This document shows, in pieces, positions 922 to 57,221 of a stretch of DNA of 64,000 nt. Below the pieces are notes generated by a model. That model saw only the letters and a list, made by a program, of their open reading frames with translations, ran no database searches and was not told the origin of the DNA. The stretch is from Clostridia bacterium (lineage in GTDB: Bacteria > Bacillota > Clostridia > Christensenellales > UBA1242): positions 146,259-210,258 of the forward strand of contig JAFUSN010000004.1 in the NCBI GenBank assembly GCA_017467625.1, in the 5' to 3' direction. The first letter of the stretch is position 1, and the number at the start of each line of letters is the position of its first letter. Position numbers and translations under genes: made by a program.

Positions 922-3192
922 ATGGAAATAATGAGTATTGTTACTATTGTTGCTGGTGTGATTTTGTTACTTGGTTTGCTTTTAGGCTTGGTTAGAGGTT
1001 GGAAAAAATCACTAGCGAAAACATTGATTTTAATTGTGAATATTGTTCTTTCAATTGTGTTTGCACCGATTCTTGGATCTGCACTAGTTGGAAAATTTAC
1101 AAATGGAACAACGGTTCAAGTTGCTTCATTTAGGGTGGATTTTTTAGAGATAATTAAATCAATTGTCGGAGAAAGTGGTGCAAGTGATTTATCTGCCGCC
1201 ACTGAAACAACACAAAATCTTGCAAGAGCATTAATGAATTTGGCTGTTAATATTGCTGCATTTTTAATTCTGTTTATTTTTATTGGAATTATTGCAACAA
1301 TAATTTATTGGATTGCGAGTGCCGCAGTGAAATCATCACAAAAGAAAAATGGGACACTTAAAGAAAAAGGAATTGGCAATCGTGCAATTGGTGGTGGAAT
1401 TGGACTTATTGGTGGACTTGTGTTTTTATTTGCTTTGTTTATTCCGGTTTTTGGAGTGATGAATATTTGTGATAAACTTATTGAAGAGGAAACAACAAAC
1501 GAGTCAGCTTCAGCTTATGCAATTACCGCACCATTAAACACCATTGCTGCAAAACATTATTACACAGAAAATGAAAAAATTGGTAAAGTTGAAACATACG
1601 TTGAAAAATATGCCGAATTTAAAGAAAAGTATAATAAATCAATTGTGGGGTCAGTTTTTAATTTTACTAAAATCAACAAAGTTGGTGAACTTTCATTTGA
1701 GAGGCTAACAAATGTTAAATCAGGAAATTTAACATTGGATTTTAAAAACGAAATTGTGTCAGCAATTAGAACCTATAATGCATTTAAAAATACATTCATT
1801 GAAAACACTTTTGATGTAACAAATAATAATTCAATTGATGGTGCATTAACCATTTATAAAGAGGCTGTTAAATCTGAAACCATTAGGCAATATGTCATTG
1901 ATTTAGTTCCAACGCTTTGTGCAAGATGGTCAAACGGTGAATCCTTTATGGGAATTAATTTACCGGTTGATAATAAATATAAAGACTTAGTTATTTCAAT
2001 TTTAAATGTTTTTAATGTAAGCCAAATTGAAATAATTAACAACAATGTTGAAGTTATTGGAAAAACCATAAAGAAAATAAATGATCCATATCAAATTATT
2101 AAAAAAGTTAAAAACGGCGAAAATATTGTTGATGTTTTGACAGATTGTGATGGTGCAGTTAAAGACATTATTATTGAATTGTCAAAATCACAAGAATTTA
2201 GAAGAGCAATCCCAATAACATTAAATAATGTCATGGAACTTGTTTATGAAATTATTCTTGAGAATGAAATTGAATTTACTTCCACTTTGACAAATGAAGA
2301 AATTGATAAGTTAAATTGGGAAGGAGAAGCAACAAAAATTCAAAACATTATCACTAATTTCCTTAATATTTATAATTCATATGTTGGTGGAGCCAGCGAT
2401 GCCACAAATCTTGCAGATAAACTTGAAAATATAGGTGATATTATTGACAGTGCAAGAACATCAAAACTCTTGGGGCCAACGCTCAAAGTTGTTATTAGAG
2501 ATTATTTAACATCAAACAAACTTGGACTTGATGAAAACACAAGAAATAAAATTGAAGAGTATATAAACAATAACTGGGAAACCGAGGATTATAGCTTTAA
2601 AGAGGTGTTTAAAACAATTCAAGAAACAATTAATGTTGTAACAGAAATTGTTAACGAAGTTAATAATATTTCTCTTGAAAGTCTTGAAACAATTATTGTA
2701 AAAATCACTGAAAACGAAACCGTGAAAAATACAATTAAAGATTTGATTATTGGCGAAGACGGAATTATTAAACAGGTTGTTGGGGAAGATTCTTCAAATT
2801 CACAATCAATTGAAGTTATGACAGATTTACTTGAAACATTTATTGATAATTCAACTGCTGAAACTGTTCATAATGATATACTTGCAGCCAGTGAAATTGT
2901 TAACGTTGTTTCAAATTCACTTGCAAATGAAAACCATATAACTTTAAATGGTGAAACCAATGAAGAAAAACAACAATCAGCAGATGACCTTGTTGATAAA
3001 ATTGTTAACTCAAATGCAATTATGATGCTTCTTGAAACGGCAGAGTCAAGCTCAGATTCAGCATTAAATGAAATTATTGGAAATCTTGACGGTGAAGTTT
3101 CATTTATTAAAGACAGCATCTCAAATTTAGATGAAGCAGATCCAGACATGGCTGCAAAAAAAGCAGTGCTTGAGTCACTATTCAATCTTTAA
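922..3192 (+). CDS. Large membrane protein: CvpA-like multi-TM N-terminus plus a long acidic Asn/Ile/Glu-rich C-terminal region
   Basis: 756-aa ORF that starts 3 nt after comEB. Hydrophobic segments occur in roughly the first 190 aa. I recognised no motif in the remainder. A strong terminator follows. Confidence 0.6.
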   Translation: MEIMSIVTIVAGVILLLGLLLGLVRGWKKSLAKTLILIVNIVLSIVFAPILGSALVGKFTNGTTVQVASFRVDFLEIIKSIVGESGASDLSAATETTQNLARALMNLAVNIAAFLILFIFIGIIATIIYWIASAAVKSSQKKNGTLKEKGIGNRAIGGGIGLIGGLVFLFALFIPVFGVMNICDKLIEEETTNESASAYAITAPLNTIAAKHYYTENEKIGKVETYVEKYAEFKEKYNKSIVGSVFNFTKINKVGELSFERLTNVKSGNLTLDFKNEIVSAIRTYNAFKNTFIENTFDVTNNNSIDGALTIYKEAVKSETIRQYVIDLVPTLCARWSNGESFMGINLPVDNKYKDLVISILNVFNVSQIEIINNNVEVIGKTIKKINDPYQIIKKVKNGENIVDVLTDCDGAVKDIIIELSKSQEFRRAIPITLNNVMELVYEIILENEIEFTSTLTNEEIDKLNWEGEATKIQNIITNFLNIYNSYVGGASDATNLADKLENIGDIIDSARTSKLLGPTLKVVIRDYLTSNKLGLDENTRNKIEEYINNNWETEDYSFKEVFKTIQETINVVTEIVNEVNNISLESLETIIVKITENETVKNTIKDLIIGEDGIIKQVVGEDSSNSQSIEVMTDLLETFIDNSTAETVHNDILAASEIVNVVSNSLANENHITLNGETNEEKQQSADDLVDKIVNSNAIMMLLETAESSSDSALNEIIGNLDGEVSFIKDSISNLDEADPDMAAKKAVLESLFNL

Positions 3193-3286: not shown

Positions 3287-4222
3287 ATGAAAAGAAAAGA
3301 AGAAAATAAAATACCGGTAATTTTAAATTGCGACACTGGTATTGATGATGCTGTCGCTTTAATTTTGGCTGTTAAATCAAATAAACTTGATATAAAGTTA
3401 ATCACCACAGATGTTGGAAATGTTGCAACAGATAGGGCGGCTTTAAACACCTTAAACATTTTGGAACTTATTGGTGCGCCAATAATTCCTGTTGTTGCAG
3501 GAGAGGGAAAGTGTTTTGAAATTGAGCGTCCAAGAGTTGCTGTTCATGGAAATGGGGGCCTCGGTGAATTTATTTTTGAGCCACATGACAGAAATGTGAT
3601 TCAGGCAGATGCAGTTGACAGAATGTATGAGGTTTTAATGTCATCAAGTGAACCAGTAACAATTATTTGTGTTTCACCAACAACAAATGTTGCAAAACTA
3701 GTGACTAGATATCCAAAGTGCAAAAACAGAATTGCAAGAGTTGTTTTAATGGCTGGTACAATTGAAGAGGTTAAAAGAAATGAAATGCCTTATCCAGAAT
3801 TCAACATTGCGTGTGATCCTGAGGCGGGTGTTGCACTTTTTAAGTCAGGAGTTCCAATTGAAATTGTTCCAATGGAAATGGGGCACACCGCTTATTTGAC
3901 ATGGAGCGAAGTTTTTAAAACAAAAGTTAAAAATTACACTGGTGCAGTGCTTGAAAATATTTATAGGAGTTATAAAGATAGGCATGTTAAAAATGGAATT
4001 GCAACGCATGATGGCTGTGCAATTGCTTATGTAACAAATCCAGAACTTTTTAAAACTAGCCCAGTTAATGCAAAAATTAAATATTTTGACAGCATAAATT
4101 CTGGCGTGCTTGTTATGGATTTTAAAAAGAAACCAAATGCAATCACTTGCGTTTCAATGGATATTCCAAAGTTTAAAAAATTGTATTTTAAATGCTTATC
4201 AATGTGTAAAAAAGAAAAATGA
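3287..4222 (+). CDS. Inosine-uridine preferring nucleoside hydrolase family protein
   Basis: N-terminal DTGIDDAVAL aspartate cluster typical of IU-nucleoside hydrolases. 311 aa. Confidence 0.85.
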   Translation: MKRKEENKIPVILNCDTGIDDAVALILAVKSNKLDIKLITTDVGNVATDRAALNTLNILELIGAPIIPVVAGEGKCFEIERPRVAVHGNGGLGEFIFEPHDRNVIQADAVDRMYEVLMSSSEPVTIICVSPTTNVAKLVTRYPKCKNRIARVVLMAGTIEEVKRNEMPYPEFNIACDPEAGVALFKSGVPIEIVPMEMGHTAYLTWSEVFKTKVKNYTGAVLENIYRSYKDRHVKNGIATHDGCAIAYVTNPELFKTSPVNAKIKYFDSINSGVLVMDFKKKPNAITCVSMDIPKFKKLYFKCLSMCKKEK

Positions 4223-5886
4223 CAAAGAAAAAATCTGAATATGGCATAATCAAAAGTTTTGGACTTTTGTGGAAATTTATGGGAATTCGTGAAAGGATAG
4301 AGTTTATTTCTCTATTCTTTTTTGCCATGATTTCCGCACTTGCAAATGTATATAATGCCCTTATGCCTTCAATTATGATTGCAAAATTTACCGGTGGTGA
4401 TGTTTGGTTTATTAAGGGCGCAAGTTTAGCTGATATGAACATTTGGGTTTTTATGTTGTTGTTTTGTGGATCAATGGGAATATTTTGGGCGTATTATCTT
4501 TTTAATTATCGTTTAATTGATGTGTTTGCAAGAAAGATGATGGCAAAAACCAATGAAAAAGCACAAGAAATTATTTTGCTTGAACGAAAAAATTTAGATT
4601 TTGGAATGACTATTGGTGAAGCAAACTATATTTTGAAAAATGCTGTTGACAACATTTATGCAATGTTTGAGCCGGTTTGTTGGCGATTTGCAATAAACAT
4701 AATGAGCATGATTTTCATGATAATTCAGTTGTTTGTTTTAAACACAACAATTGGATTTGTTGCGCTTGGACTTATTGTTTTAATTTTAACTCTTGTTATG
4801 TTGAGAACAAAAATTGAGGAACCGATTATTCGTGGAATTGAAAAAACCAATGCAAAAATTGGAAACCACTTTTTAATGTCGCTCACAAATCTTCCAATGA
4901 TAACAATTTTTGAATCAAAGAAAAAAGAACTTGAAGAACTCAAAAAACTCAACACATCGTTTTATAAATCGCACAAGAAAAAAGCGAACATAATTTTTTG
5001 GTATTGGACGCTTGTTTCATTTGTTGAATACATTGGACTTGCGGTTTTGCTTGCAACTTATGTAACAATTATTGGAGAGGGTGTTCAAGCCACAAACATA
5101 ACCACAATTATAAATGAAATGCTTGCCGTGTTTGGTTATGTTGAAGTTTGGGGGTATTTGCTTGGAGATCTTCAGGCGGCCTCAATTAAGTTTGGAAATT
5201 TGCGTAAACTTTATCCAGATGATTCACAAGCCTTAAAAGAGAAACGTAAATTTAATGAAGCCGTTGCAAATTCCAAAATTTATAGTTTGAAAGTTGAAGA
5301 TATTGAAGTGAAACTTGGAAACTTCAAAAAAACTTATAATGTTGAATTTGATGCAGGAAAAATTTATGTCATAAGCGGGCAAAGTGGACAGGGAAAAACA
5401 ACTTTAATCAATGCAATGTGTGGGTTGCGTGAAATGACTTCTGGACATATTGTGGTGAATAATAATCATAAGATCAAAAACCTTTATGATTATAAATATA
5501 AAATATCATATTTATTTCAAGATTCAGTTTTGTTTGATAGGAGCATTGAAGCAAATATTGCCTATCCAGAAGATGAACTTAATGAAGAAGCCCAACAGTT
5601 AATTAAGCGTTTTGATTTAACAAAGGTGATAACCAGACAAGAAGAAAAGGGATCAATTGCTGCAACGCTTTCTGGGGGAGAAAAAAAGAGAATTGATATT
5701 GCAAGAACATGTAGCAAAGATAAAGACATTTATTTCTTAGATGAGCCAACCAATGATTTAGATGCAAAAAATGTTTCACGAGTTCTTGAAACAATTAAAG
5801 AACTTGCTGAAAAAAACAAAATTGTTATTGTTGTTTCTCATGATGAGAGATGTATTCAAATTGCTGATGAAATCGTAAATTTATAA
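4219..5886 (+). CDS. ABC transporter, fused permease/ATP-binding protein
   Basis: N-terminal TM region. Walker A GQSGQGKTT, signature LSGGEKKR, Walker B IYFLDEPT. ATGA overlap with the upstream gene. Confidence 0.85.
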   Translation: MTKKKSEYGIIKSFGLLWKFMGIRERIEFISLFFFAMISALANVYNALMPSIMIAKFTGGDVWFIKGASLADMNIWVFMLLFCGSMGIFWAYYLFNYRLIDVFARKMMAKTNEKAQEIILLERKNLDFGMTIGEANYILKNAVDNIYAMFEPVCWRFAINIMSMIFMIIQLFVLNTTIGFVALGLIVLILTLVMLRTKIEEPIIRGIEKTNAKIGNHFLMSLTNLPMITIFESKKKELEELKKLNTSFYKSHKKKANIIFWYWTLVSFVEYIGLAVLLATYVTIIGEGVQATNITTIINEMLAVFGYVEVWGYLLGDLQAASIKFGNLRKLYPDDSQALKEKRKFNEAVANSKIYSLKVEDIEVKLGNFKKTYNVEFDAGKIYVISGQSGQGKTTLINAMCGLREMTSGHIVVNNNHKIKNLYDYKYKISYLFQDSVLFDRSIEANIAYPEDELNEEAQQLIKRFDLTKVITRQEEKGSIAATLSGGEKKRIDIARTCSKDKDIYFLDEPTNDLDAKNVSRVLETIKELAEKNKIVIVVSHDERCIQIADEIVNL

Positions 5887-5918
5887 AAGGAGTGATGGCT
5901 CCTTTTATTTTTTTTTTA
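5886..5918 (+). terminator. Rho-independent terminator
   Basis: Hairpin aaaggag-tgatgg-ctccttt followed by a long T-run. Confidence 0.75.
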
Positions 5919-5986
5919 ATTTGGTGGCACGGGTTTAACCATTTTGCCTAAATTGTGTGTTATGATGGTTTTAGCAGGGGGCAAAA

Positions 5987-7504
5987 ATGGCAAATATAAT
6001 TAATCTCACTGAAAAGGGGAACAGACTTGACATAACCGACACCTACACACCAATTGTGTGTGGAAATTCAAACTATTCTATTCATTTTTCTTTTAGTGAA
6101 ATGTGGCAAAGTGTGGTTCATAAAACCGCAATTTTTATTGTTGAAGGCAAAAAATATGCCGTTGATTTCACAGGAACCGATGTAAAAGTTCCAGCGCTTC
6201 CAAATGCGCCATTTGTTTTTGTGGCACTTATTTCTGCAGATGAGGGAGATGAAATCATTTCAACAACAGCCGTTAGGCTTAGACTGGAAAAAACACCCAT
6301 TTTAGATGACATGGGTGATTTTAGCCCAGTAAAAAACTATATAAGTCAAATTAACACGCTTCTTAATAAAATTGAAACGGGTGATTTTGTGGTTAATCAA
6401 GCAGAAAATGCCATCCATGCAGAAAGTGCAACAATTGCAACTTCTGCCACCTCTGCTGAAAGCGCGTCTTATGCAGAAACAGCCGGCAGCGCATCAACAG
6501 CCGAAAGTGCTGATTATGCAACGAGTTCCGGACACTCTGAAACTGCTGGCTCTGCAACAAGCGCTAACACAGCAACTACTGCAACCACTGCAGACAATGC
6601 AACGCATGCAACCACTGCAGACAACGCAACGCATGCAACTAGTGCAGACACGGCCACAACTGCAACAAATGCAACTAGTGCAGACAATGCAACACATGCA
6701 ACCAGTGCAGATACAGCCACAACCGCAGCAAATGCAACGCATGCAACTAGTGCAGATTCTGCAACCACTGCGGAAACATCTGCAAATGCAACATATGCAA
6801 CAAGTGCTGGAACGGCCTCAGTTGCAATAGCTGCACAAAATGTTTCAAATGTAAATTTGCTTATTAATGGCGATTTTAAAATAAACCAAAGAGGGAAAAC
6901 CACATATTCAACAGCAAACAAATATACTGTGGACAGGTGGAAGCTTGTTAGTGGTTCATTGTCAGTTGTTTCAAATGGAATAAACTTAAATGGAACAATA
7001 ACTCAAACATTAGAAAAAGTTCCACAGGGAAATGTTGCTGTAAGCTCAAATGCTGGGACTGTTTCTTATTCAAACGGTGTAGTAACGCTCACAGCTTCAA
7101 ACAAAGTTATAACATGGGTAAAGCTTGAAATTGGAAGCGCAAAAACACCATTTTCACCTAAAACATATGCGGAAGAACTAAGTGATTGCCAACGTTATTA
7201 CAACAAGCTGAATGTTGCTTATTTGAATGGTTTCAACTCAGGGAATGATATTCGTTCTGTTCGTGCATTTCTTCCACTTCCGGTTGAAATGAAGTCAGGT
7301 GTTTCGCTCATTAAAGAAAACACAAGGTGTTGGATTCATGGCTCATCTGGATATTTTGGTGAAGCCACAAATATTGAATTATTTGGCAGATATTCAAATG
7401 GACTTGCTTTAACAATTACGTTAAGTTCAAGTGTTAGCCCAGCAGCAGATGTAACCTTTATTTGTGAAATAACAAACAATATTGAATTTGAATCTGAAAT
7501 ATAA
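5987..7504 (+). CDS. Phage tail-fibre-like protein (orphan) with an Ala/Thr/Ser-rich repeat shaft
   Basis: 505 aa. The central section of about 145 aa consists of A/T/S repeats (ADNATHAT/SADTATTA). The C-terminal region carries NLLINGDFKINQRG and ELSDCQRYY, motifs I associate with phage tail-fibre tip domains. AGGGGG RBS. Own terminator. Confidence 0.6.
   Translation: MANIINLTEKGNRLDITDTYTPIVCGNSNYSIHFSFSEMWQSVVHKTAIFIVEGKKYAVDFTGTDVKVPALPNAPFVFVALISADEGDEIISTTAVRLRLEKTPILDDMGDFSPVKNYISQINTLLNKIETGDFVVNQAENAIHAESATIATSATSAESASYAETAGSASTAESADYATSSGHSETAGSATSANTATTATTADNATHATTADNATHATSADTATTATNATSADNATHATSADTATTAANATHATSADSATTAETSANATYATSAGTASVAIAAQNVSNVNLLINGDFKINQRGKTTYSTANKYTVDRWKLVSGSLSVVSNGINLNGTITQTLEKVPQGNVAVSSNAGTVSYSNGVVTLTASNKVITWVKLEIGSAKTPFSPKTYAEELSDCQRYYNKLNVAYLNGFNSGNDIRSVRAFLPLPVEMKSGVSLIKENTRCWIHGSSGYFGEATNIELFGRYSNGLALTITLSSSVSPAADVTFICEITNNIEFESEI
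6587..6775 (+). repeat. In-frame imperfect tandem repeats (27-nt core unit ACTGCAGACAATGCAACGCATGCAACC, with 36- and 45-nt variants)
   Basis: Directly visible: units begin at 6587, 6614, 6641, 6677, 6704 and 6749. The wider low-complexity A/T/S-coding tract spans about 6401-6841. Confidence 0.8.
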
Positions 7505-7506
7505 AA

Positions 7507-7524
7507 AGACGCAATTTAGCGTCT
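7507..7524. terminator. Bidirectional terminator hairpin between convergent genes
   Basis: agacgc-aattta-gcgtct flanked by an A-run and a T-run. Confidence 0.65.
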
Positions 7525-8568
7525 TTTTATTTTGTGATAAATTTTTAATAAAAATTTTTTAAGTTTTCCGTTGCCAGCAGTCAAAAATTTAAATTTAGTT
7601 AAAATAATTTTATCTAAATGGGAAATGTGGTATAACTTTTTGCGCTGCTTAATTTCTTTTTTCGTAAACTGTTTCAGTTGTTTGCATTCTTCAAAAAAGG
7701 CATAGCATTTTTCCCCATAAAATTTAATTTTTTCAATATCGTTTTTTGAAACTTTTTTTGACTGAATAAATTTTTTGTAGTAATAACCAAAGCGTTCAAA
7801 TAAAAGTTCTTCAGTAACACACAACAGTTCCGGGTTTAGTTCAAGTGATTTATAAAGTTCAATTCTTTCAAAAATAGCATCAAGGTCATCAAAGTGTTTT
7901 GCAACAGACGAACTCGTCATAATGCTTCCTGAGCGAATTCGGTAAAAATATTTACAAGCACTTGTTGTTGCAACTTTATTGCACTTCAAATAAATTTTGT
8001 GGGCAACAAATTGATCTTCATTAATTTTTCCAACAGGGTAGGTTATTCCATTAAAAAGTTCTTTTTTATAAAGCTTACACATCGCAACAACAAAGGGCAT
8101 TGTGTTTCCAGGTTTAAGCATAAAAAGTGTTTCGGTTGAAGTCAAAATATTGTCACCAACATCAAAATTATAATCTGGCTCACCTGAATCATGTTTTTGA
8201 CAAATTCCACAAATTGAAACATCTGCTTTTGCTTGTTTTAATGAGTTGTAAAGTGTTTCAAAATAATTGAGATCTAAATAGTCATCGCTATCAACAAATG
8301 AAAGATATGCTCCCGTTGAAATTTCAATTCCAACATTTCGAGCTGAGGATAGGCCTCCATTAGTTTTGTGAATAACAACAATGCGTGAATCTTGTTTTGC
8401 AAAATCGTCACACATTTTTCCTGAATTATCAAGGCTTCCGTCATCAACTAAAATAATTTCCAAGTTTTTATATGTTTGATTAAGAACACTGTGTATACAT
8501 TCATTTAAGTATTTTTCAACATTAAAAACAGGGATTATAACTGAAATTTTTTCCATAATTTTTTCCAA
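7516..8568 (-). CDS. Glycosyltransferase family 2
   Basis: ISVIIPVFNVEKYLNECIHSVLNQTY...ILVDDGSLD and a DSDD motif, consistent with a GT-A fold. Confidence 0.85.
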   Translation of the reverse strand: MEKIMEKISVIIPVFNVEKYLNECIHSVLNQTYKNLEIILVDDGSLDNSGKMCDDFAKQDSRIVVIHKTNGGLSSARNVGIEISTGAYLSFVDSDDYLDLNYFETLYNSLKQAKADVSICGICQKHDSGEPDYNFDVGDNILTSTETLFMLKPGNTMPFVVAMCKLYKKELFNGITYPVGKINEDQFVAHKIYLKCNKVATTSACKYFYRIRSGSIMTSSSVAKHFDDLDAIFERIELYKSLELNPELLCVTEELLFERFGYYYKKFIQSKKVSKNDIEKIKFYGEKCYAFFEECKQLKQFTKKEIKQRKKLYHISHLDKIILTKFKFLTAGNGKLKKFLLKIYHKIKRR

Positions 8569-8582
8569 TAAAATATTTTAAA

Positions 8583-9785
8583 CTAAGCTATGGCATTTTC
8601 GGGTAGGGTTCGGTTTTGTTTAAACCAATCTGTTTCCTTTAAAATGGTTGTATTATTTGAACATGAAACCGTAGAATTGTTTGTTCCAGAAGAATGAACA
8701 ACAATATTTCCATTAAACGAGGTAAATGTTCCTGCGTTATAGTCAATGCAAAGCGTTGTTACAAAAATTTGTTTTGTGTAAATTGAAACCCTGTCAACAA
8801 ATTCTTGAGTTGGAAACTGATTTTCATTCTTTTTAGTATATTCGCTTGATCCTGCACAGCAACAAACACAAACAATTTTTGGTTGAATAACGTTTAAAAG
8901 TGCTTCACTTGAAGATGTTTTTGAACCATGGTGTCCAGCCTTATAAAGTTCAACAGGTCCAAGCGAGTTTTCTTCAACAAGTGACTGTTCGCCATCCTTT
9001 TCAAGGTCACCAGTAAACAGGTATTTTTTTGTTCCTTGAACAATTTGAAAACAAACAGAGAAATTGTTTTCGGTTGATGTTTCATCTTTGTTTGATTCCT
9101 CATAGAACTTTTGATATAAAAACTCTAAAGAAATTCCATTTTCAAGCGAGTAAGTTCTTTGCGACGCAACTCCATTAACAATTTCGTTATTCCAACAGTT
9201 TAGAGCAGTGAAAACATTTGTTCCAGTTGATTTAACTTCCGTTAATTCACGATCAAAATTTTTAAACATTGCGTTGGCTGTTGTTTTGTGTGTTTGAGCA
9301 AATGTTACAACCGTTTCAATTGACCTTCCGTCTTTTGAGTAATAATCAAAAAGACTTTCGGTGTTTGCAGGCGTTACAAACCCAGCATAGTGATCTTCAT
9401 GGGCATGGGTGATAATGATATACTCTAAAACATTATCAGTGCAGTATGTATCAATGTAAGATTCTATTGTGTTTATGCTGCTTGCTTTTGATCCCGCATC
9501 AACCAAAATTTCAGTATTTCCAGTTTTAATCAAAACACAGTCTCCGGTATACTTATTTCCAAGTTCAATAAAATGAATTGAAAGATCTTCGCTTTTAATT
9601 TCATCAACATCAATTCCGTCGGCAACAGCAGGTGTTGACGAACCATTGATTTTTGATGGTATTGAATATGACCCTGGAAGTGTTGAATAAACAAAAAATA
9701 CAAAACCAGCAACAAGGCCTAAAATCAAACACAAAATAGAGGTAAAAATATTTTTAGCTTTTGAAAATTGTTGTCTAGCCATCAT
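8583..9785 (-). CDS. Membrane-anchored metallo-beta-lactamase-fold hydrolase (ComEC C-terminal-domain-like)
   Basis: N-terminal TM helix. HAHEDHYAG (HxHxDH) and KAGHHGSKTSSS motifs typical of ComEC/Rec2-related MBL domains. AGGAGG RBS. Confidence 0.75.
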   Translation of the reverse strand: MMARQQFSKAKNIFTSILCLILGLVAGFVFFVYSTLPGSYSIPSKINGSSTPAVADGIDVDEIKSEDLSIHFIELGNKYTGDCVLIKTGNTEILVDAGSKASSINTIESYIDTYCTDNVLEYIIITHAHEDHYAGFVTPANTESLFDYYSKDGRSIETVVTFAQTHKTTANAMFKNFDRELTEVKSTGTNVFTALNCWNNEIVNGVASQRTYSLENGISLEFLYQKFYEESNKDETSTENNFSVCFQIVQGTKKYLFTGDLEKDGEQSLVEENSLGPVELYKAGHHGSKTSSSEALLNVIQPKIVCVCCCAGSSEYTKKNENQFPTQEFVDRVSIYTKQIFVTTLCIDYNAGTFTSFNGNIVVHSSGTNNSTVSCSNNTTILKETDWFKQNRTLPENAIA

Positions 9786-10296
9786 CTTCCTCCTTTAAAA
9801 CAATAATGTTTCTAATTAGTTTCACATTTCTATATTTTAAATTTGGGCAGCTATAAACGGCGTAGTAAATTCCCGGTGTGTTTTCATCAACACCAGAAAC
9901 CAAAGTTTCATCTTTTGTTAAATCATCTCTAAAATAATAGGTTACTGTGCACTCACTTGAAATATCTTTTCCAAACGCAATGCATCTAACTCCTGGTTCA
10001 ACATATTCTGTAAGCATACCGTCTTCTTCATCAAACCCAATTGTAACATCAATGGTGCCAGTTGATGACGCAATCATTTCATATGTGTCATTTTTCAAAA
10101 AGAATTTTGCACCAAAGTAACCACCAACCAAACCAATCACTAGCGCCAAAGCAATTAGAATAATGCTAACACCCATTTTGGTTGAAAGTTTTTTAACGGC
10201 TTTTTTTGAGTGCTTTTTATTAGATGAATCAAAAATATTACTAAAATCTAATGATTGTTTAGACTGTTTCGTCGCTTTCATGTTGTCATAACTCAT
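9775..10296 (-). CDS. Membrane-anchored protein with a bacterial Ig-like (DUF5011-like) domain
   Basis: 173 aa with one TM helix. The C-terminal pattern EPGVRC...DISSECTVTY...TPGIYYAVY is Ig-like. It overlaps the downstream MBL gene by 11 nt. Confidence 0.5.
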   Translation of the reverse strand: MSYDNMKATKQSKQSLDFSNIFDSSNKKHSKKAVKKLSTKMGVSIILIALALVIGLVGGYFGAKFFLKNDTYEMIASSTGTIDVTIGFDEEDGMLTEYVEPGVRCIAFGKDISSECTVTYYFRDDLTKDETLVSGVDENTPGIYYAVYSCPNLKYRNVKLIRNIIVLKEEDDG

Positions 10297-10386
10297 AAAA
10301 TTTTCCTCACAGTTTAATAATAAAACAAATTATAAAAAAATCAAAATGTAATTTTCGGTTTTTAAAATTTTGATAAGAAGGTTTTA

Positions 10387-14114: not shown

Positions 14115-14191
14115 GGCGGCATAGCTCAGTTGGCTAGAGCGATCGGTTCATACCCGGCAGGTCATAAGTTCGAATCTTATTGCCGCTACCA
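14115..14191 (+). tRNA. tRNA with CAT anticodon (elongator Met or lysidine-modified Ile2; not initiator-like)
   Basis: Hand-folded cloverleaf: acceptor GGCGGCA/TGCCGCT, D arm GCTC-AGTTGGCTA-GAGC, anticodon loop TTCATAC, T arm ATAAG-TTCGAAT-CTTAT, encoded CCA. It lacks the three G-C pairs in the anticodon stem expected of an initiator. Confidence 0.85.
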
Positions 14192-14195
14192 ATTT

Positions 14196-14270
14196 GGCCC
14201 CATCGTCAAGCGGTTAAGACATCACCCTTTCACGGTGAAGTCAGCGGTTCGAATCCGCTTGGGGTCACCA
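14196..14270 (+). tRNA. tRNA-Glu (TTC)
   Basis: Acceptor GGCCCCA/TGGGGTC, anticodon stem TCACC/GGTGA with loop CTTTCAC, T arm AGCGG-TTCGAAT-CCGCT, encoded CCA. Confidence 0.9.
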
Positions 14271-28701: not shown

Positions 28702-29397
28702 ATGAAAAAATTTTTAATATTGCTTTTTATGGTGGTTATTCTTTATCCGTTTGGTAATTATGCTTTAGCATTTGCAAAAACCAATTCAACTGAAATTTTA
28801 ACCGACACTGTTCCAAGTCGAAACTACACCGTTGTGATTGACGCTGGTCATGGTGGAAGCGATCCCGGTTCAATTGGCTTCAAAACCAAAGTGCGTGAAT
28901 CAGACTTAAATTTAAAACTTACTTACATGCTCAAAGAAAAACTTGAAAATTCAGGAATAAATGTTGTTTTAACAAGAACTGGTAATGATGCACTTTTGGA
29001 AGGCTCAGGACGAGGTTGGAAAAAACTTGAAATGGAAAAGCGTAAAGAATTAATTAAACAAATTCGTCCAAATCTTGTAATTTCAATTCATCAAAACAGT
29101 TACACAAATCATTCACTTCGTGGTGCACAGGTGTTTTATGACAAAACCAGTGAAATCAGCAAACAAATTGCTGATTCAATTCAAGAAGAATTCACAGATG
29201 ACCTTGTTCACGGCAAAAAATGGACCAGCCCTGGTGACTACTTTATGTTAAAGTGCACATATGCGCCGTCAGTTATTGTTGAGTGTGGATTTTTGTCTAA
29301 TGAGGAAGATGAAAAGCTTCTGTTAACAAGTGATTATCAAGAAAAAATCATCAACGCAATTTACATGGGAATCATTAAATTTCTGCAAATAAAATAA
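28702..29397 (+). CDS. N-acetylmuramoyl-L-alanine amidase (CwlD-like, Amidase_3)
   Basis: Signal/TM segment, then VIDAGHGGSDPG, SIHQNS and VECGFLSN motifs. Confidence 0.8.
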   Translation: MKKFLILLFMVVILYPFGNYALAFAKTNSTEILTDTVPSRNYTVVIDAGHGGSDPGSIGFKTKVRESDLNLKLTYMLKEKLENSGINVVLTRTGNDALLEGSGRGWKKLEMEKRKELIKQIRPNLVISIHQNSYTNHSLRGAQVFYDKTSEISKQIADSIQEEFTDDLVHGKKWTSPGDYFMLKCTYAPSVIVECGFLSNEEDEKLLLTSDYQEKIINAIYMGIIKFLQIK

Positions 29398-29929: not shown

Positions 29930-30655
29930 ATGAAATTTGAAGGTAAAAATGCGGTAAAAGAATTGCTTGCAACCAATGGAAAAATTGAAAAAATTATGCT
30001 TGCCGATGGAACAAGTGATGCCGATATTCGTGCCATTTTCAAACAGGCAAAATCTCTTGGAATTCAAGTTCAATGGGTTCCTAAGGCTGCGCTTGAAAAA
30101 GCCAGTGAAACTGGTCATCATCAAGGGGTTATTGCAATTGGCGCTGAATATGAATATGCCGAGCTTGAAGATGTGATTTCAAAATGTAAAAACGCAGGCA
30201 AAGAAATGTTTTTCATTATTCTTGACGAAATTTTGGATCCACATAATCTTGGCTCAATAATAAGAACTGCTGAATGTGCGGGACTAACGGGCGTTATTAT
30301 TCCGGCACGCCGAAGCGCAATGGTAAATGAAACCGTTGTAAGAACTTCTGCTGGTGCAACTGCATACATTCCAATTATCAAAGTTCAAAATGTAAACTCT
30401 GCAATTGAAACATTAAAAAAATCTAATGTTTGGGTTTATGCGCTTGATATGGCCGGCGAACCAATGGGGAAAACCAACCTAACTGGAAATCTTGCACTTG
30501 TTGTTGGAAACGAAGGAGATGGAGTTCATTCGTTAACTCGCAAAACATGTGATGGAGTTATTTCAATTCCAATGTTTGGAAACTTAAATTCACTTAATGC
30601 AAGTGTCAGTGCAGGAATTGCAATTTACGAAGCTGTTAGACAAAGGAGCAAGTAA
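29930..30655 (+). CDS. rlmB: 23S rRNA (guanosine-2'-O)-methyltransferase, SpoU/TrmH family
   Basis: LDEILDPHNLGSIIRTAECAG, LVVGNEGDG and SLNASVSAGI motifs. Confidence 0.85.
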   Translation: MKFEGKNAVKELLATNGKIEKIMLADGTSDADIRAIFKQAKSLGIQVQWVPKAALEKASETGHHQGVIAIGAEYEYAELEDVISKCKNAGKEMFFIILDEILDPHNLGSIIRTAECAGLTGVIIPARRSAMVNETVVRTSAGATAYIPIIKVQNVNSAIETLKKSNVWVYALDMAGEPMGKTNLTGNLALVVGNEGDGVHSLTRKTCDGVISIPMFGNLNSLNASVSAGIAIYEAVRQRSK

Positions 30656-30656
30656 C

Positions 30657-31211
30657 TTGAAAGAAGTAAAATCTAGTGATATAATCAAAATTGTTGATAA
30701 ATATTCTGGGTTTGTGAATTCGCTTTGCAGAAGATATTTTTTAATTGGTGGCACACATGAAGATCTTTATGAAGAGGGAATCATTGGAATTTTAGAAGCA
30801 ATAAGAAATTTTAAAGGTGAAAGTCTTTTTTCAGAAGAGTTTGACATATTTGTAAAACTTTGTGTAAAAAGACAAGTTATTGATGCAATCAAAAAATCCA
30901 ACACAAAAAAAAGTAAAGTTTTAAACGAGGCTGTTGCACTTGAAATTACACTTGAAAGTGGAGAGGAAAGAAACATTCTTGAAACTTTTCAAGACCCCAC
31001 AACTTCCAACGATCCACTTGACTTAATTTTAGATTCAGAAAAGTTTAATGAAAATCTAGAAAAATGCAAAAAAAAGCTAAGTAAACTTGAAATTGAAGTA
31101 TTAAACCAGTATTTATCAGGAAAAAAGCAAAGTGAAATTGCTGAATCATTAAACAAAACAACCAAAAGCATTGACGACACAATTCAAAGAATAAAAGGAA
31201 AAATGAAATAA
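30657..31211 (+). CDS. sigH: RNA polymerase sigma factor, SigH-like
   Basis: DLYEEGIIGILEAIRNF and CVKRQVIDAIKKSNTKK resemble sigma-H regions 2 and 3. C-terminal HTH SEIAESLNKTTKSIDDTIQRIK. I prefer the TTG start at 30657, which has an AAAGGAG RBS and follows the rlmB stop, over the ORF-track ATG at 30597 that overlaps rlmB. Confidence 0.75.
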   Translation: MKEVKSSDIIKIVDKYSGFVNSLCRRYFLIGGTHEDLYEEGIIGILEAIRNFKGESLFSEEFDIFVKLCVKRQVIDAIKKSNTKKSKVLNEAVALEITLESGEERNILETFQDPTTSNDPLDLILDSEKFNENLEKCKKKLSKLEIEVLNQYLSGKKQSEIAESLNKTTKSIDDTIQRIKGKMK

Positions 31212-33742: not shown

Positions 33743-33775
33743 AAAAATCACTGAAATTCAGTGATTTTTATTTTT
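33743..33775. terminator. Bidirectional terminator between recR and the convergent TGase-like gene
   Basis: aaaatcactgaa-at-ttcagtgatttt, a perfect long hairpin with flanking A-run and T-run. Confidence 0.8.
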
Positions 33776-34603
33776 GATGTTTAAAAGTTCTTTATAGGAA
33801 TAATTTTTCATGTCGTTTGCCCACAATCTGCTTTTGCTTAACAAATTATCATCAATTAAAAAATATTTGTTTTCTTCGTTATTTAAATCCCATGTAACAT
33901 CAACATGTTTCCATTTTCCATCAATGAAAACCTGATTCCAGGCATGAGCTTGAGAGTCTAAAATATATCCATGGATAATTTTACATTTCACATTAGCTCT
34001 GTCTAAAATAAATTTAAAAGCATTTGCAATTCCAGAGCAAACTGCATTGTGATTTACCAAGCATCCATAAATTGTGTAGGCTGAATCATCTGAAAGAAAA
34101 AAGTTTTTGGCGCCATATTTATAGGTCGTATTTTTTCTTAAATAATTGTAAACAAATTTAATTTTTTCAAAATCTGTTTTTCCTTTAATCAAATTTAAAA
34201 TTTTAGTAGCTTCTGCTTCAACCTGAATAATTTTAGCATTCACATTTTCAGTGTATTCAATTTCTGTAAGTTGATAAACAGGAAGAGTGTAAAAAATTTC
34301 AGGATGATCAATTTTAAGGCATTTATAAATTAAAATTTTGTTTTCATTTGATGAAAATCGTACTTTTTTTGGAAGAAGAAGAAAATTAATATTGTGTTTC
34401 AAATTTTTAAGTGTATCATAAAGAACATCATAAAAAATTTTATCAGTATTGCTTAATTGTTCTCTGTAATAGCAATAAACACCGTCAAGCCATCCATCAT
34501 GTGACTGCTTTGGTTGTTTCTTTTTCTTTTTACAGTAAATAAGTATATAGATTGATGGTGAAAAAATAAATAAAAATAGAAATATAAAAGATAATATAGT
34601 CAT
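33758..34603 (-). CDS. Membrane-tethered transglutaminase-like (papain-fold Cys-His-Asp) protein
   Basis: N-terminal hydrophobic helix followed by KKKKKQPK. Transglutaminase-core motifs AVCSGIANAF (Cys), AHAWNQVFIDGKW (His) and HVDVTWD (Asp). Confidence 0.75.
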   Translation of the reverse strand: MTILSFIFLFLFIFSPSIYILIYCKKKKKQPKQSHDGWLDGVYCYYREQLSNTDKIFYDVLYDTLKNLKHNINFLLLPKKVRFSSNENKILIYKCLKIDHPEIFYTLPVYQLTEIEYTENVNAKIIQVEAEATKILNLIKGKTDFEKIKFVYNYLRKNTTYKYGAKNFFLSDDSAYTIYGCLVNHNAVCSGIANAFKFILDRANVKCKIIHGYILDSQAHAWNQVFIDGKWKHVDVTWDLNNEENKYFLIDDNLLSKSRLWANDMKNYSYKELLNIKNKNH

Positions 34604-34605
34604 AA

Positions 34606-36405
34606 TTAATTTTCATTATCTCCTGGTTGACCCTCTGGTTTTGTTGAAGAATTGTTATTACCTAAAATGTCATTTCTTAAAGTGAAGAAACCTTGCTCTG
34701 AAAACAACATAATAAATTCTTCAAGAGTTCCAATTATTGAAGTGTTGGCATTATCAGAATAAAATTTAACAACAACATCTCTAAATGAAGGGTTGTAGTT
34801 GTTTTTTGAAATTGTGTAACTAACATTGCCATGGCAAAGTGCGTGTCTAATTAAAGTTAAAACATAAGTTTTATCACGAACGTTTTCAATATGTTGAATT
34901 TTAGAGTTTTTAACAGACTCTCTGTAATGTATTCCACTAGCAACACTTATTGAAGAAATTAAATCACGGTGAGCTTTATATTCATCAGTAAAAATTTTAT
35001 TATGTGGAAGTTCAGACAAAACTTCTTCATAAAAACCGCTTGTGATTAATGCGTTGTAAGCATATAAACACATTGTGTTAAAAGCAATGTCAACAGGGGC
35101 ATGCTTAAGACCATTTAAATCTATCAAATTCATGTTCATAGTTTCATATTTTAGTTGGTCAAGCAAGATTTTTTCCGTTTGCAAAATGCGTTTGTTGAGA
35201 TTTTCAAGCTGGGTTTTTTGATATAAAAGCAGTGCTTTATTTTTAGAAGAAAGGTTTGGACCTTTTAATTCGTAAACAATTTCTTTAATTCGTTTTGCAA
35301 TCTCTTTCTTTTCATTTGAAAAATCATAATCAGTATCATTAAAAAATTCAAGTCCATATTCAGGGGTTTTTTCAGTTACGGTTTTTGCGATAAGTTGTTG
35401 CAGGTTATATAAAATATTAAAATTAATTGTTTGATATTTATCTTTTGAATAAATGTTGTCTGCAACAAATTTTGAAACAATTTCAACTCTTTTATCAAAT
35501 GGCTTAAAGTTAAAATTTGGAAAGCAGGATATATGAGTTTCAATGAGTTTTTCAAGATTAGGATTAATGTCATTCCCATATCTTTGTTTTAAAAGAGTAA
35601 TTAAAGAAGGGACATCTCGTTTGTCTTCAATTGAATTTCTAAATGCTTTAAGCCTAACTGATAAATATTCATAAACATCATTAAAACTTACGGTTGGTTT
35701 TGAAAAATTTCCCATTTGTGAAAACATTTCTGAAAAACCACGGAGCCACATTTTTGACACAACAAGTTCGTCATCAAATTTATTTCCAATAAATGTGAGA
35801 GTTGAATGCATAATGTATGGAACTGAATGAACAAGTCGGTTTCTAACGGCTTTCAATGTTTCAAATGATGAAAGCTCGTGGTCAGCATTTGAGGTATATG
35901 AAATTGGATCCGTGGAAAGTGTTAACAATCTAACAACTTCTCCATTAATTTTGTGCTTTTCAATCTTATAGGTTCCATCTTGAATTGTGCATAATGTAAT
36001 TTCGTTTTGGCTTTGATTTTTTTGCAATTTAACTTTATATGTTTCAAGCATGTTTTTAGCTTCATCACTGGTTAATTGTTTTAAAACAAAATGTCCGTCT
36101 AAAATTTCTTGTGATTCAGACTCTTTTTGTGCTAAATCTTCTGAAAGGGATTTTTCAAAATTTTGAACAGCCAAAAAGCCTGATGTGTAAACCCAAAAAT
36201 CTTTTAGATTTAAAACATCAAAATCGTCAAGCTGAATATCTGTGTTAAATTCAAAAGTATCAATATTTTGATAAATTCTATCTAAAATTTCTAGTTGTCG
36301 AAGCGAAAGCGCAATTTTTTGTTTGGATTCTTCAGCTAAATCAAGCTCATTTTCTCCGCTAAAATTTTCTTCAATTTGGCTACTTTCAATTTCATCAAAT
36401 TCCAT
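34606..36405 (-). CDS. Hypothetical 599-aa protein with two HEPN-type Rx4H motifs (putative RNase effector)
   Basis: RNRLVH (aa 188-193, nt 35827-35844) and RHALCH (aa 520-525, nt 34831-34848), each preceded by hydrophobic helix-like context (LKAVRNRLVHS; LTLIRHALCHGN). Acidic N-terminus. Its stop lies 2 nt before the TGase-like start. Confidence 0.55.
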   Translation of the reverse strand: MEFDEIESSQIEENFSGENELDLAEESKQKIALSLRQLEILDRIYQNIDTFEFNTDIQLDDFDVLNLKDFWVYTSGFLAVQNFEKSLSEDLAQKESESQEILDGHFVLKQLTSDEAKNMLETYKVKLQKNQSQNEITLCTIQDGTYKIEKHKINGEVVRLLTLSTDPISYTSNADHELSSFETLKAVRNRLVHSVPYIMHSTLTFIGNKFDDELVVSKMWLRGFSEMFSQMGNFSKPTVSFNDVYEYLSVRLKAFRNSIEDKRDVPSLITLLKQRYGNDINPNLEKLIETHISCFPNFNFKPFDKRVEIVSKFVADNIYSKDKYQTINFNILYNLQQLIAKTVTEKTPEYGLEFFNDTDYDFSNEKKEIAKRIKEIVYELKGPNLSSKNKALLLYQKTQLENLNKRILQTEKILLDQLKYETMNMNLIDLNGLKHAPVDIAFNTMCLYAYNALITSGFYEEVLSELPHNKIFTDEYKAHRDLISSISVASGIHYRESVKNSKIQHIENVRDKTYVLTLIRHALCHGNVSYTISKNNYNPSFRDVVVKFYSDNANTSIIGTLEEFIMLFSEQGFFTLRNDILGNNNSSTKPEGQPGDNEN

Positions 36406-36531: not shown

Positions 36532-38265
36532 ATGAAATTTAAATTAGCAATGACATTAAAGGAGCTCAAAAAAAGAACATCAAAATCAGCTTATCGACCA
36601 GTGAAATTTTTAAAATTAGATTCTCGTGAGGTAAAAAAGCTTTCAAATGATGATCTTTTAGTTTTAATGCATTTAACAAGGGCGGCCAAACAATTTGATG
36701 TAATAAATTTAAAACTTGAAAATCATCATAACCTTGAGTTCTTGGAATTTTTAAATAAAGAAATTGAAAACGGGAACAAAAAAGCAGTTCTTGCTAAAAA
36801 AATGTTTGATTCACAAAAAAGTATGTTTTCACCTGACGCTCTTGGAAATCAAACTAAACTTGTTTTAAATGTTGAAAGGACTGATGGGCAAGGTTATTTT
36901 CCTGAAGACTTGAAGGTTGCGGAGTTTCATGAAATTTTAAGCCGAATGCTTGATAGGGGTGAAATTGAAAAAGTTCGTGAAATTTTGAACCAGCGATCAA
37001 TTGTTGTTCGTGATGGAGATGAACTTGTTGCAATTGATTTTGTTGAGGCCCTTCCTGAATTTCAAATTGTTGCAGATGAACTTGAAAAGGCAATTCATTT
37101 TTCAAGCGACAAAAAATTTAACAAATATCTTGAACTTCAAGTAAAAGCGCTTCGCACCGCAGATCCAAAACTTGATGTTGAGGCAGATAAGGCTTGGGCA
37201 AAACTTGACGGTGGAAAATTTGAATTCACAATATGCCGTGAATGTTACACTGAAAAGTTGACTAAATCAATTTATGAAAATAAAGAACTTTTAAAGCGCA
37301 TTGAAGATGCTGGAATCACTGTTTATGCAAAAGACACTCTTGGTGCACGCGTTGGAATTGTGAATAAAGCTGGAACCAAACTTCTTAAAAAATTAAAACA
37401 GCTTTCAACCATTTCTGCAAAGTTTATGCCTTATCAAAATGAATATAAAACTGAAGATGAAACTGATGAAATTTCACAAACAGCTGTTGATGTTGACCTT
37501 ATAACTTTAACTGGTGATGAGGGTGCATATAGGGCAAGTTTGGTGCTTGCGCAAAATCTTCCAAATGATGACAAACCTTCGCTTGCAGCGGGTGGTGGCA
37601 GAAGGAATGTTTATCACAGGCAAGTTAGGTTGGGTGTAAATAAAAAACTATACAAAAATTTAATAAATGATGAGCAGTTTAAATATTTCAATCCAGATGC
37701 AGACCATTGGGCAGTTATTTGTCATGAAAACACACACTCGCTTGGTCCTCGTTCACATTCTTCTCTTGGGAAATTCAGTTCAATTCTTGAAGAGTATAAG
37801 GCCGATATGGGAATGTATGCCTTTTTAGATGAGTTTGTTGCAGCTGGTGCAATCACAGATGAGCAGAGCAAGGAAATTATTTTAACAAGTTTAACCTATG
37901 GTTTTTTAAAGGGGAAACCAACGCTTGATCAAGCACACAGAACAAGATCCGTTATGATTTGCAACAGAATGTTTACTGAAAAAGCAATCACACTTGATGA
38001 TGACGGAAAATTAAAATTCAATTTTGAAAAAGTTAAAGCAGTAACAAAACAAATGATGAGAGAAGTTATTCGTCTTCAAATTGATCGTGATGTTGAAAAA
38101 GCGAGAGAGTATGTTGAAAAGTGGTTTGTTTGGTCAAATGAAATTCAACATATTGCTGATATAATCAATAAGCTCAGCAAAAAACTTAACGGCTATTTAA
38201 GTCAGCCACTTGCAGATGCAATGCTTGAAGATAATTTTGAAGAAATTTTAAAAACGCGAAAATAA
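36532..38265 (+). CDS. Zinc metallopeptidase, M49 (dipeptidyl-peptidase III)-like
   Basis: HENTH (HExxH) followed by a second acidic motif EEYKAD, resembling the M49 HExxGH...EExxAE/D arrangement. 577 aa. Confidence 0.55.
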   Translation: MKFKLAMTLKELKKRTSKSAYRPVKFLKLDSREVKKLSNDDLLVLMHLTRAAKQFDVINLKLENHHNLEFLEFLNKEIENGNKKAVLAKKMFDSQKSMFSPDALGNQTKLVLNVERTDGQGYFPEDLKVAEFHEILSRMLDRGEIEKVREILNQRSIVVRDGDELVAIDFVEALPEFQIVADELEKAIHFSSDKKFNKYLELQVKALRTADPKLDVEADKAWAKLDGGKFEFTICRECYTEKLTKSIYENKELLKRIEDAGITVYAKDTLGARVGIVNKAGTKLLKKLKQLSTISAKFMPYQNEYKTEDETDEISQTAVDVDLITLTGDEGAYRASLVLAQNLPNDDKPSLAAGGGRRNVYHRQVRLGVNKKLYKNLINDEQFKYFNPDADHWAVICHENTHSLGPRSHSSLGKFSSILEEYKADMGMYAFLDEFVAAGAITDEQSKEIILTSLTYGFLKGKPTLDQAHRTRSVMICNRMFTEKAITLDDDGKLKFNFEKVKAVTKQMMREVIRLQIDRDVEKAREYVEKWFVWSNEIQHIADIINKLSKKLNGYLSQPLADAMLEDNFEEILKTRK

Positions 38266-57146: not shown

Positions 57147-57221
57147 TGGAGCTACTGGCGGGAATCGGACCCGCGACCGCCGCATTACCAATGCGGTGCT
57201 CTACCACTGAGCCACAGTAGC
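57147..57221 (-). tRNA. tRNA-Thr (GGT)
   Basis: The reverse complement folds as acceptor GCTACTG/CAGTAGC, D arm GCTC-AGTGGTA-GAGC, anticodon stem CCGCA/TGCGG with loop TTGGTAA, T arm GCGGG-TCCGATT-CCCGC, encoded CCA. Confidence 0.9.

Follow-up and report, generated by a model that had tools for sequence, protein, structure and literature searches.

Several described systems separate the genes for surface recognition from other parts of a virion or follow the glycan type of the host. In RcGTA, the gene transfer agent (GTA) of Rhodobacter capsulatus, the tail fibre and head-spike genes reside at loci apart from the other phage-like genes and are maintained by the host; these recognition loci undergo frequent virus-mediated exchange, and their products bind the surface polysaccharide or capsule of the producer species itself (PMC5026251, PMC10218006). 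Lactococcal phages have modular receptor-binding heads whose type matches the variable gene cassette present in the cell-wall polysaccharide (cwps) locus of the host (PMC4010823). The spike of the non-tailed vibriophage NO16, GP13, is a trimer built from two perpendicular beta-sandwiches that are joined by a small helix, with a cleft resembling that of carbohydrate-binding modules (CBMs) in the first sandwich, and carbohydrate binding by GP13 is a prediction (PMC13552765). Here, we describe a gene for a fibre protein in a 64-kb stretch of DNA from a Clostridia bacterium (contig JAFUSN010000004.1, positions 146,259 to 210,258; hereafter the window). In the best reading of the data, its product is a domesticated receptor-binding fibre, the tip of which is matched to the wall glycan of the strain.

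The fibre gene (5987-7504, + strand) is an open reading frame (ORF) with an ATG start; its product of 505 amino acids (aa) is identical to the NCBI entry 'MAG: hypothetical protein IJ538_02885 [Clostridia bacterium]', for which the longest contig with the gene measures 660 kb. An earlier sequence-only reading of the window had divided this protein into three parts, a layout which the ORF check and an AlphaFold2 model (monomer, built on 72 homologs) bear out. The N-domain (aa 1-135; 5987-6391, +), which is phage-type and constitutes the conserved module of the family, consists of a beta-sandwich (aa 1-108, predicted local distance difference test score (pLDDT) >90) followed by a helix (aa 113-131) and is presumed to be the attachment domain. 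The shaft (aa 136-282; 6392-6832, +) is a Thr/Ser-rich triplet repeat of about 46 Ala-X-Y units, with Ala in 93% of the every-third positions, mostly Thr, Ser, Asp, Asn or His at X and Y, and four Gly residues in total. The sequence-only reading had recognized the Ala/Thr/Ser repeat and put the shaft at about 145 aa; its exact length is 147 aa. At the DNA level, the shaft is a 9-nt periodic array (6434-6820) with higher-order units of 27 and 63 nt; AlphaFold2 leaves the shaft region (aa 137-288) unmodelled, and across the family the length of the shaft ranges from 4 to 171 aa. Its triplet repeat is like that of collagen, but the periodic residue is Ala and not Gly. The Ala-X-Y repeat was also seen in other family members and in unrelated proteins retrieved through the repeat.

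The C-domain (aa ~290-505) is modelled with high confidence up to about residue 410 (block pLDDT values of 84-97), beyond which the values are 66-89 and more variable. Its elements are a beta-sandwich (aa 293-382), a short helix (aa 394-402) formed by the YAEELSDCQRYY motif and a second beta-sandwich (aa 405-503). We distinguish tip subdomain 1 (aa 283-393; 6833-7165, +), the CBM-like beta-sandwich that starts with NLLINGDFKINQRG, from tip subdomain 2 (aa 394-505; 7166-7501, +), which comprises the YAEELSDCQRYY helix and the second sandwich. Both C-terminal motifs quoted in the sequence-only reading are present and form the most conserved columns in the family alignment; N294, N300, Q301, R302, D316, W318, K379, E381 and C401 are invariant.

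The same reading had connected these motifs with phage tail fibres, and comparison with phage sequences and structures substantiates the connection: bona fide fibres and spikes of phages have tips homologous to that of the window protein. This tip matches phrog_4492 ('tail fiber protein') with an E-value of 3.8e-21, and tblastn retrieves annotated tail fibres from several phages. Over ~215 aa, hhalign aligns it with the fibres of the Clostridium siphophages HM T (HMT_40, gp40; E 2.4e-32) and Amboise (WAK79312; E 3.3e-28). A Foldseek search against the predicted viral structures in BFVD resulted in 75 matches with E<=1e-3, essentially all of them to phage fibre, minor-structural or 'CenC-like carbohydrate-binding' proteins. 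The only solved structure matched was PDB entry 9t9r, 'Spike (GP13)', to which the family profile aligns with E 1.9e-4 and with both signature motifs in register, while the window protein alone yields a marginal match (E 0.031). Judged by its molecule name and size, 9t9r appears to be the vertex spike of NO16; the predicted topology of aa 290-505 agrees with the order of elements in NO16 GP13.

The fibre P0072, found on a 16-kb phage-like contig, is 65% identical to aa 287-410 of the window protein, and the similarity stops directly after CQRYY. An accessory ORF of the phrog_24451 type follows the fibre gene in chromosomal relatives as well as in HM T, Amboise and the P0072 phage. A holin function was considered for the small ORFs that lie downstream of the gene in relatives and was rejected, because they are hydrophilic and one of them is a phage fibre accessory protein. 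In the 876-aa protein P0043, a homolog without the N-domain, about four tandem copies of tip subdomain 1 are found, an architecture not seen in the chromosomal family.

The N-domain belongs to no Pfam or PHROG family, has no relatives in IMG/VR either as a single sequence or as a profile, and gives only chance-level matches in tblastn searches of phage genomes. An exhaustive profile search yielded 3004 carriers, with 76 core representatives (E<=1e-30) and 1386 distant ones; the core, at 1e-30, is set apart from the phage-type domains, at 1e-18, by a gap in score. The distant carriers are proteins of 125-1025 aa that have the domain at their N-terminus, and those tested bear tail-fibre or minor-tail C-terminal parts. 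A remote homolog (hhalign probability 96%, E 1.9e-9) is encoded by phage MT835537.1 (37.7 kb, human faeces), where the gene order is tape measure, Dit-like, Tal-like, N-domain protein and tail spike. By this remote homology, the N-domain is of the type that phages place N-terminally on tail proteins encoded after Dit and Tal, and it may serve in attachment to a virion. Since an attachment-type N-domain, a shaft and a receptor-binding tip are combined in it, the window protein is a complete fibre.

In the window, which is ordinary chromosomal DNA around it, the fibre gene is an orphan, as had been noted from the sequence: a scan of the ~50 larger ORFs revealed no gene for a capsid, tail, terminase, integrase or lysis protein. 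Its flanks had been given as an ABC transporter and a GT2 gene, and these are an ABC exporter gene (4219-5886) upstream and the last gene of a convergent operon (7516-10296, -) downstream, which consists of p173 (9775-10296), MBL (8583-9785) and a GT2 glycosyltransferase (GT) gene (7516-8568). The p173 protein is membrane-anchored with a weak Ig-like match, and its gene overlaps that of MBL, a membrane-anchored ComEC/Rec2-type hydrolase that also matches the phage 'tail protein' phrog_7043 (E 4e-28); both proteins have extracytoplasmic domains in addition to their anchors. DNA or a phosphodiester in a wall polymer might be the substrate of this pair. On its upstream side the window contains a deaminase, a membrane protein of ~757 aa (922-3192, +; 756 aa in the window), a nucleoside hydrolase and the ABC exporter. 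The ~757-aa protein has only a borderline CvpA match and accompanies the fibre locus throughout the lineage. On the other side of the fibre gene lies a ~20-kb cell-wall glycan region with interspersed housekeeping genes. This region contains GT2 genes, a TagGH-like ABC-2 transporter, an initiating sugar transferase, a GT1 gene and genes for a Wzy_C-like protein, a pyruvyl transferase and a GT2-HAD protein, with housekeeping genes beyond.

The same neighbourhood, with deaminase, ~757-aa membrane protein, IU-nucleoside hydrolase and ABC exporter on one side and p173-MBL and GTs on the other, is shared by about 25 loci on other contigs, which include metagenome-assembled genomes (MAGs) of 10 GTDB species and derive from uncultured Clostridia or Eubacteriales of animal and human guts. 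No phage structural genes were found within +/-10 kb of the fibre gene in these loci. The N-domain is under strong purifying selection, with omega values of 0.07-0.16 and saturated dS. The p173-MBL pair adjoins the fibre gene, despite inversions, in the window and in loci L001, L007, L009 and L013-L015, but not in the L003/L008/L010 group. A pair of tRNA genes, tRNA-Met(CAT)/tRNA-Glu(TTC), was observed in the window (14115-14270, +), in L001 (7880-8048), and in L007, L009 and L013; in every locus checked, it either adjoins the p173-MBL-fibre block or is no more than a few kb away. Its position is compatible with an ancient integration site, and no att-like direct repeats were found around the fibre block. 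A 446-aa protein without an informative family also accompanies the fibre locus in the lineage (for example, L003 5017-6357) and is absent from the window.

Two loci deviate from the pattern: in L015, the fibre gene (10001-10348) is truncated to 115 aa and directly abuts the MBL gene, and L012 (7531-8574) encodes a 347-aa protein with an unrelated C-terminus. These are cases of decay or replacement inside the lineage, as expected of any gene family. A prophage relic, which the sequence-only reading had entertained, is disfavoured by the comparative data, because throughout the lineage the gene remains intact, keeps its synteny and evolves under purifying selection. The position of the gene is conserved, as it would be for a cell-surface protein of another family, but the family is that of phage fibres. 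We hold with moderate confidence that a phage-type fibre has become fixed here as a single chromosomal gene bordering a variable glycan island and is kept functional by selection.

Comparison of the loci showed that whole tips are exchanged in cassette fashion, that the breakpoints fall at the conserved CQRYY helix, and that phages take part in this exchange. Shaft length is variable, and the identities of the N- and C-domains are decoupled across loci. L003 and L010 have flanks that are 98% identical and tips that are only 35% identical. Six loci of one species, in which the upstream flanks share 97.5-99% and the N-domains 97-100% identity, carry several types of tip that are ~30% identical to one another.

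Five of these same-species loci, giving ten pairs, have enough sequence downstream for a comparison of tips and glycan genes, for which 7 kb of downstream DNA was aligned. Among these genomes, tip subdomain 2 and the neighbouring glycosyltransferase genes are co-inherited. Two of the ten pairs, L003-L023 and L010-L026, have versions of subdomain 2 with 96-97% identity, and these are the only pairs that clearly share downstream glycosyltransferase genes (67% and 81% aligned, with 93-97% identity). In the remaining eight, subdomain 2 is 27-37% identical and 0-17% of the downstream DNA is common, except in L003-L024, where 40% of the downstream DNA aligns at 81% identity. L026 combines a subdomain 1 of the L003 type with a subdomain 2 and glycan genes of the L010 type. 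Whole-tip identity has no clear correlation with glycan-locus similarity (Spearman 0.24), and the signal emerges only when the tip is split at the helix. Subdomain 2 of the window protein, at 25-31% identity to those of the loci fetched, has no close relative and is a unique version.

The sequence-only reading had assigned the fibre gene its own promoter and terminator, and both assignments are supported. The gene is its own transcription unit, because a terminator-like hairpin (5883-5908, +; an 11-bp stem followed by a T-run) closes the upstream ABC-exporter gene. At the other end, a hairpin terminator with a 12-bp stem (7501-7530) lies between the convergent fibre gene and GT2 operon and is probably bidirectional. 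A generic promoter scan missed the promoter element proper and performed no better than chance; the promoter is nevertheless recognizable from its conservation across the family. It consists of a G-rich box, TGGCACGGGT (5925-5934, +; approximately -48 to -39), an extended -10 element, TGTTATGAT (5958-5966, +), whose T-A...T positions are family-invariant, and a Shine-Dalgarno sequence, AGGGGG (5976-5981, +), that is located 5 nt 5' of the ATG and is conserved in the alignment. In an alignment of relatives, this 42-nt architecture (TG[T/A/G]CA[G/C]GGGT, exactly 23 nt, TGnTAnnnT) and the strong ribosome-binding site after it are kept even where the proteins share only 30-50% identity. In the 473 kb of DNA fetched, each locus has a single occurrence of the composite pattern, always 5' of the fibre gene except in L005/L006. 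There, it precedes a second, rearranged copy of the module (L005 18367-19306, -), a small operon with a 60-aa ORF, a 100-aa phrog_24451-type ORF and, at its end, a 121-aa ORF that contains the N-domain only; the full-length fibre gene of that genome is ~8 kb away from this copy.

The position of the G-rich box at about -48 to -39 makes an activator site more likely than a -35 element, and the conserved box suggests a candidate site for a dedicated activator or regulator. A -35 element was rejected in view of the distance, 23 nt 5' of the extended -10 and 26 nt before the -10 hexamer. Nor can the TGGCAC box be read as a sigma-54 site, as the -12 element is absent and most relatives have TGTCAG or TGACAG. 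Neither the upstream region in the window nor that in seven relatives contains a riboswitch or other known RNA element.

No signal peptide, transmembrane segment, lipobox or LPXTG motif was found in the fibre protein, in which the maximal 19-residue hydropathy is 1.5 (0.8 in the first 40 residues), nor does it contain a wall-anchoring Pfam domain (SLH, CWB2, LysM and similar). An export signal or anchor is also lacking in all family members that were aligned from residue 1. The adhesin that the sequence-only reading had offered as one possibility is unsupported, since there is neither a signal peptide nor a wall anchor. Pfam, NCBIfam and PADLOC offer no real family for the protein, and a match to Plasmodium_HRP is a low-complexity artefact of the shaft. 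The protein belongs to no curated CBM family (CBM4_9, CenC-like), nor to any of the surface-protein, defence or exosporium families that were tested. PADLOC has no match for the fibre, p173 or the small ORFs, and its matches to MBL and the ABC transporter are to generic domains.

The comparative data favour the other proposal of the sequence-only reading, a domesticated receptor-binding protein linked to the polysaccharide genes, and a possible mode of action can be outlined. By homology with GP13, the fibre would form a trimer. Its conserved N-domain would dock on a conserved, vertically inherited partner encoded by the host; N-domain conservation and the gap in score to the phage N-domains argue against a partner that varies with each infecting phage. 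The exchangeable tip would bind a surface polysaccharide that differs between strains and that is most probably made by the neighbouring genes. We tentatively propose that the fibre equips, in trans, a phage-like particle whose genes lie at another place in the genome and which might resemble a GTA or a tailocin and be released by lysis; the multi-locus RcGTA is a precedent. Deployment on such a particle is preferred because the protein lacks a signal peptide, membrane segment or wall anchor and because relatives retain a phage fibre accessory gene. With the tip kept beside the glycan genes, targeting specificity and self glycan type would be co-inherited. It is a more doubtful proposition that the exchangeable tip and the wall-glycan cassette constitute one co-inherited unit, a hard-wired 'self-glycan reader', which might be used in kin-directed delivery, by a GTA- or tailocin-like particle made from dispersed genes, or in recognition of the own surface.

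A number of observations weigh against a domesticated fibre with a tip matched to the wall glycan. Particle, baseplate and lysis genes were not seen in the window or in the +/-10 kb around the gene in any relative. Homology alone suggests that the tip would bind glycan. Subdomain 1, whose counterpart in NO16 GP13 is the proposed carbohydrate-binding part, does not track the glycan genes. The association of tip and glycan genes comes from five genomes, with an exact-partition permutation p of ~0.07. It is also confounded by physical linkage: only ~0.8 kb separate the tip from the glycan genes, and hitch-hiking during island replacement could give the same pattern. The G-rich box has no second copy in the window, which thus shows no sign of a regulon; its 31 IMG/VR matches in phage contigs are all chance-like, so that a phage late-promoter element was discarded as well. 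The window copy itself has no close relatives among the loci fetched, and purifying selection was measured on the N-domains of the relatives only. The window protein ends in ...EFESEI and a stop, whereas more than 90% of the family end in ...DAEIY: at 7490-7504, a stop codon (TAA) stands where nearly all members have their final Tyr codon, and two conserved positions close to it have also changed. The small accessory ORFs seen downstream in relatives have no copy in the window. With the terminal Tyr lost and the accessory ORF missing, the window copy may be slightly degenerate.

Among the other explanations, a surface lectin or adhesin bound to the wall, which we regard as unlikely, would be exported by a non-classical route and use its tip to anchor non-covalently to the wall polysaccharide of its own cell, with the N-domain displayed; it may act together with the neighbouring p173 and ComEC-type MBL hydrolase. 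Co-inheritance of the tip cassette with the glycan genes would be expected of such a protein, and the recurrent p173-MBL adjacency despite inversions, the membrane anchors and extracytoplasmic domains of both proteins and, in the window, their shared orientation with the GT2 gene in an apparent operon are all in its favour. However, the missing export signal or anchor extends to every member aligned from residue 1, and the p173-MBL pair lies away from the fibre gene in the L003/L008/L010 group. The upstream ABC exporter is not consistently linked (tblastn does not detect it in L001 and L007), and a terminator lies between it and the fibre gene. Export would also be required if the protein were an anti-phage decoy that masks the wall-glycan receptor; alternatively, a decoy fibre might enter the baseplates of infecting phages and spoil their assembly or host range. 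This is improbable in our judgement. Tip modules are indeed held in common with phages of the same habitat (65% identity to P0072), the allelic diversity within one species is as extreme as arms-race loci would show, and phage tail proteins use the N-domain superfamily, but the conservation of the N-domain and the gap between 1e-30 and 1e-18 fit a vertically inherited partner better than diverse baseplates, and PADLOC provides no match.

The missing export signal would be accounted for if the protein read glycans in the cytoplasm, binding the finished end of an undecaprenyl-linked polymer in an ABC-transporter-dependent pathway with the shaft as a spacer or ruler. WbdD and the CBM of Wzt in the biosynthesis of the E. 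coli O9a antigen provide a functional analogy. The TagGH/Wzm-Wzt-type ABC-2 transporter in the window locus and in L009, the wide range in shaft length and the co-inheritance of tip and GT genes would suit such a reader, which we nonetheless consider very improbable: a phage fibre in this role would be unprecedented, the phage fibre accessory ORF is retained, the fibre gene has its own promoter and stands outside the GT operons, and in many relatives no ABC-2 transporter can be seen close to the gene. Hardly credible, finally, is a functionless, decaying prophage remnant kept by chance beside a tRNA-Met/tRNA-Glu integration site. Such a remnant would explain why no other phage genes are nearby, why the tRNA pair is close in several loci and why degraded copies exist (the 115-aa product in L015, the altered C-terminus in L012 and the N-domain-only ORF in L005), as well as the loss of the terminal Tyr and accessory ORF from the window copy. 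It is contradicted by the intact ORFs at the same site in dozens of divergent genomes, by the omega values of the N-domain at saturated dS, by the conservation of a non-coding promoter and by the absence of att-like repeats.

Elsewhere in the window, a CwlD-like amidase (28702-29397, +) and a SigH-like sigma factor (30597-31211, +) were noted, both of which score under the NCBIfam equivalog cutoffs. A sporulation or exosporium reading of the fibre was rejected on these scores and because the window contains no clear sporulation genes. Two divergent ORFs of 599 and 577 aa (34606-36405, -, and 36532-38265, +) have no Pfam or NCBIfam match. They are adjoined by a transglutaminase-core protein (33758-34603, -), and in L005/L006 a gene of the transglutaminase-core type is likewise found next to the fibre gene. 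Two adjacent proteins (57310-58356, -, and 58502-59464, -) each contain a zeta-toxin domain (E 1e-30 and 3e-29) and are possibly a toxin-antitoxin or UNAG-kinase-type module; a tRNA gene (57150-57221, -) was reported just upstream of this pair.

The fibre gene is not encoded in a phage or prophage tail module, and our literature searches did not turn up any description of a lone tail-fibre gene that has become fixed in a wall-glycan locus. We read it as a case of host-domesticated phage receptor-binding genes, with a protein family unnamed in Pfam, NCBIfam and PADLOC. If this holds, it offers a clear case of a single phage structural gene that has been domesticated and selected without the rest of a virion nearby. 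The docking partner of the N-domain might belong to an undescribed GTA- or tailocin-like system of uncultured Clostridia. Phage biology and host-range engineering have long been hampered by the difficulty of predicting the surface glycan that a phage receptor-binding protein recognizes. Should the coupling of tip and glycan genes be functional, each strain of the lineage would pair a binding tip with the gene cassette for its probable ligand, and the lineage would provide a natural training set from which the glycan specificity of tips in Gram-positive gut bacteria could be learned. Should the coupling be linkage only, a well-defined new protein family with a conserved dedicated promoter would still remain.

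In its overall plan, the fibre resembles the BclA-type exosporium glycoproteins of Bacillus and Clostridioides, which have no signal peptide, a conserved N-terminal targeting part and a Thr-rich, length-polymorphic triplet shaft. The two also have in common a location beside glycosylation genes and a beta-sandwich C-domain, which is trimeric in BclA and predicted to be so in the fibre. The repeat of the fibre is Ala-X-Y instead of Gly-X-Y, and its C-domain is a homolog of phage tips, not C1q/TNF-like, and the variable part of the protein. The fibres of HM T and Amboise (phrog_4492) have a homologous tip over ~215 aa, including the NLLINGDF..NQRG..DRW and AEEL.CQRYY motifs, but their N-terminal parts are unrelated to that of the window protein. 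Moreover, they sit in a module of tape measure, Dit, Tal, fibre and endolysin genes, whereas the window gene is solitary, chromosomal and without the accessory ORF. NO16 GP13, at 235 aa, has neither N-domain nor shaft and is plugged into the capsid penton by an N-terminal stalk of 20 residues (PMC13552765).

With RcGTA, the locus has in common the logic of dispersed recognition genes kept by the host; the likeness is one of logic, and no sequence relationship is expected. The particle genes and regulators of RcGTA are known, whereas here the fibre gene alone is seen, inside a glycan locus. In the lactococcal case, the phage carries the binding protein and the host has the glycan genes; in the present locus, the two stand side by side in the host chromosome.

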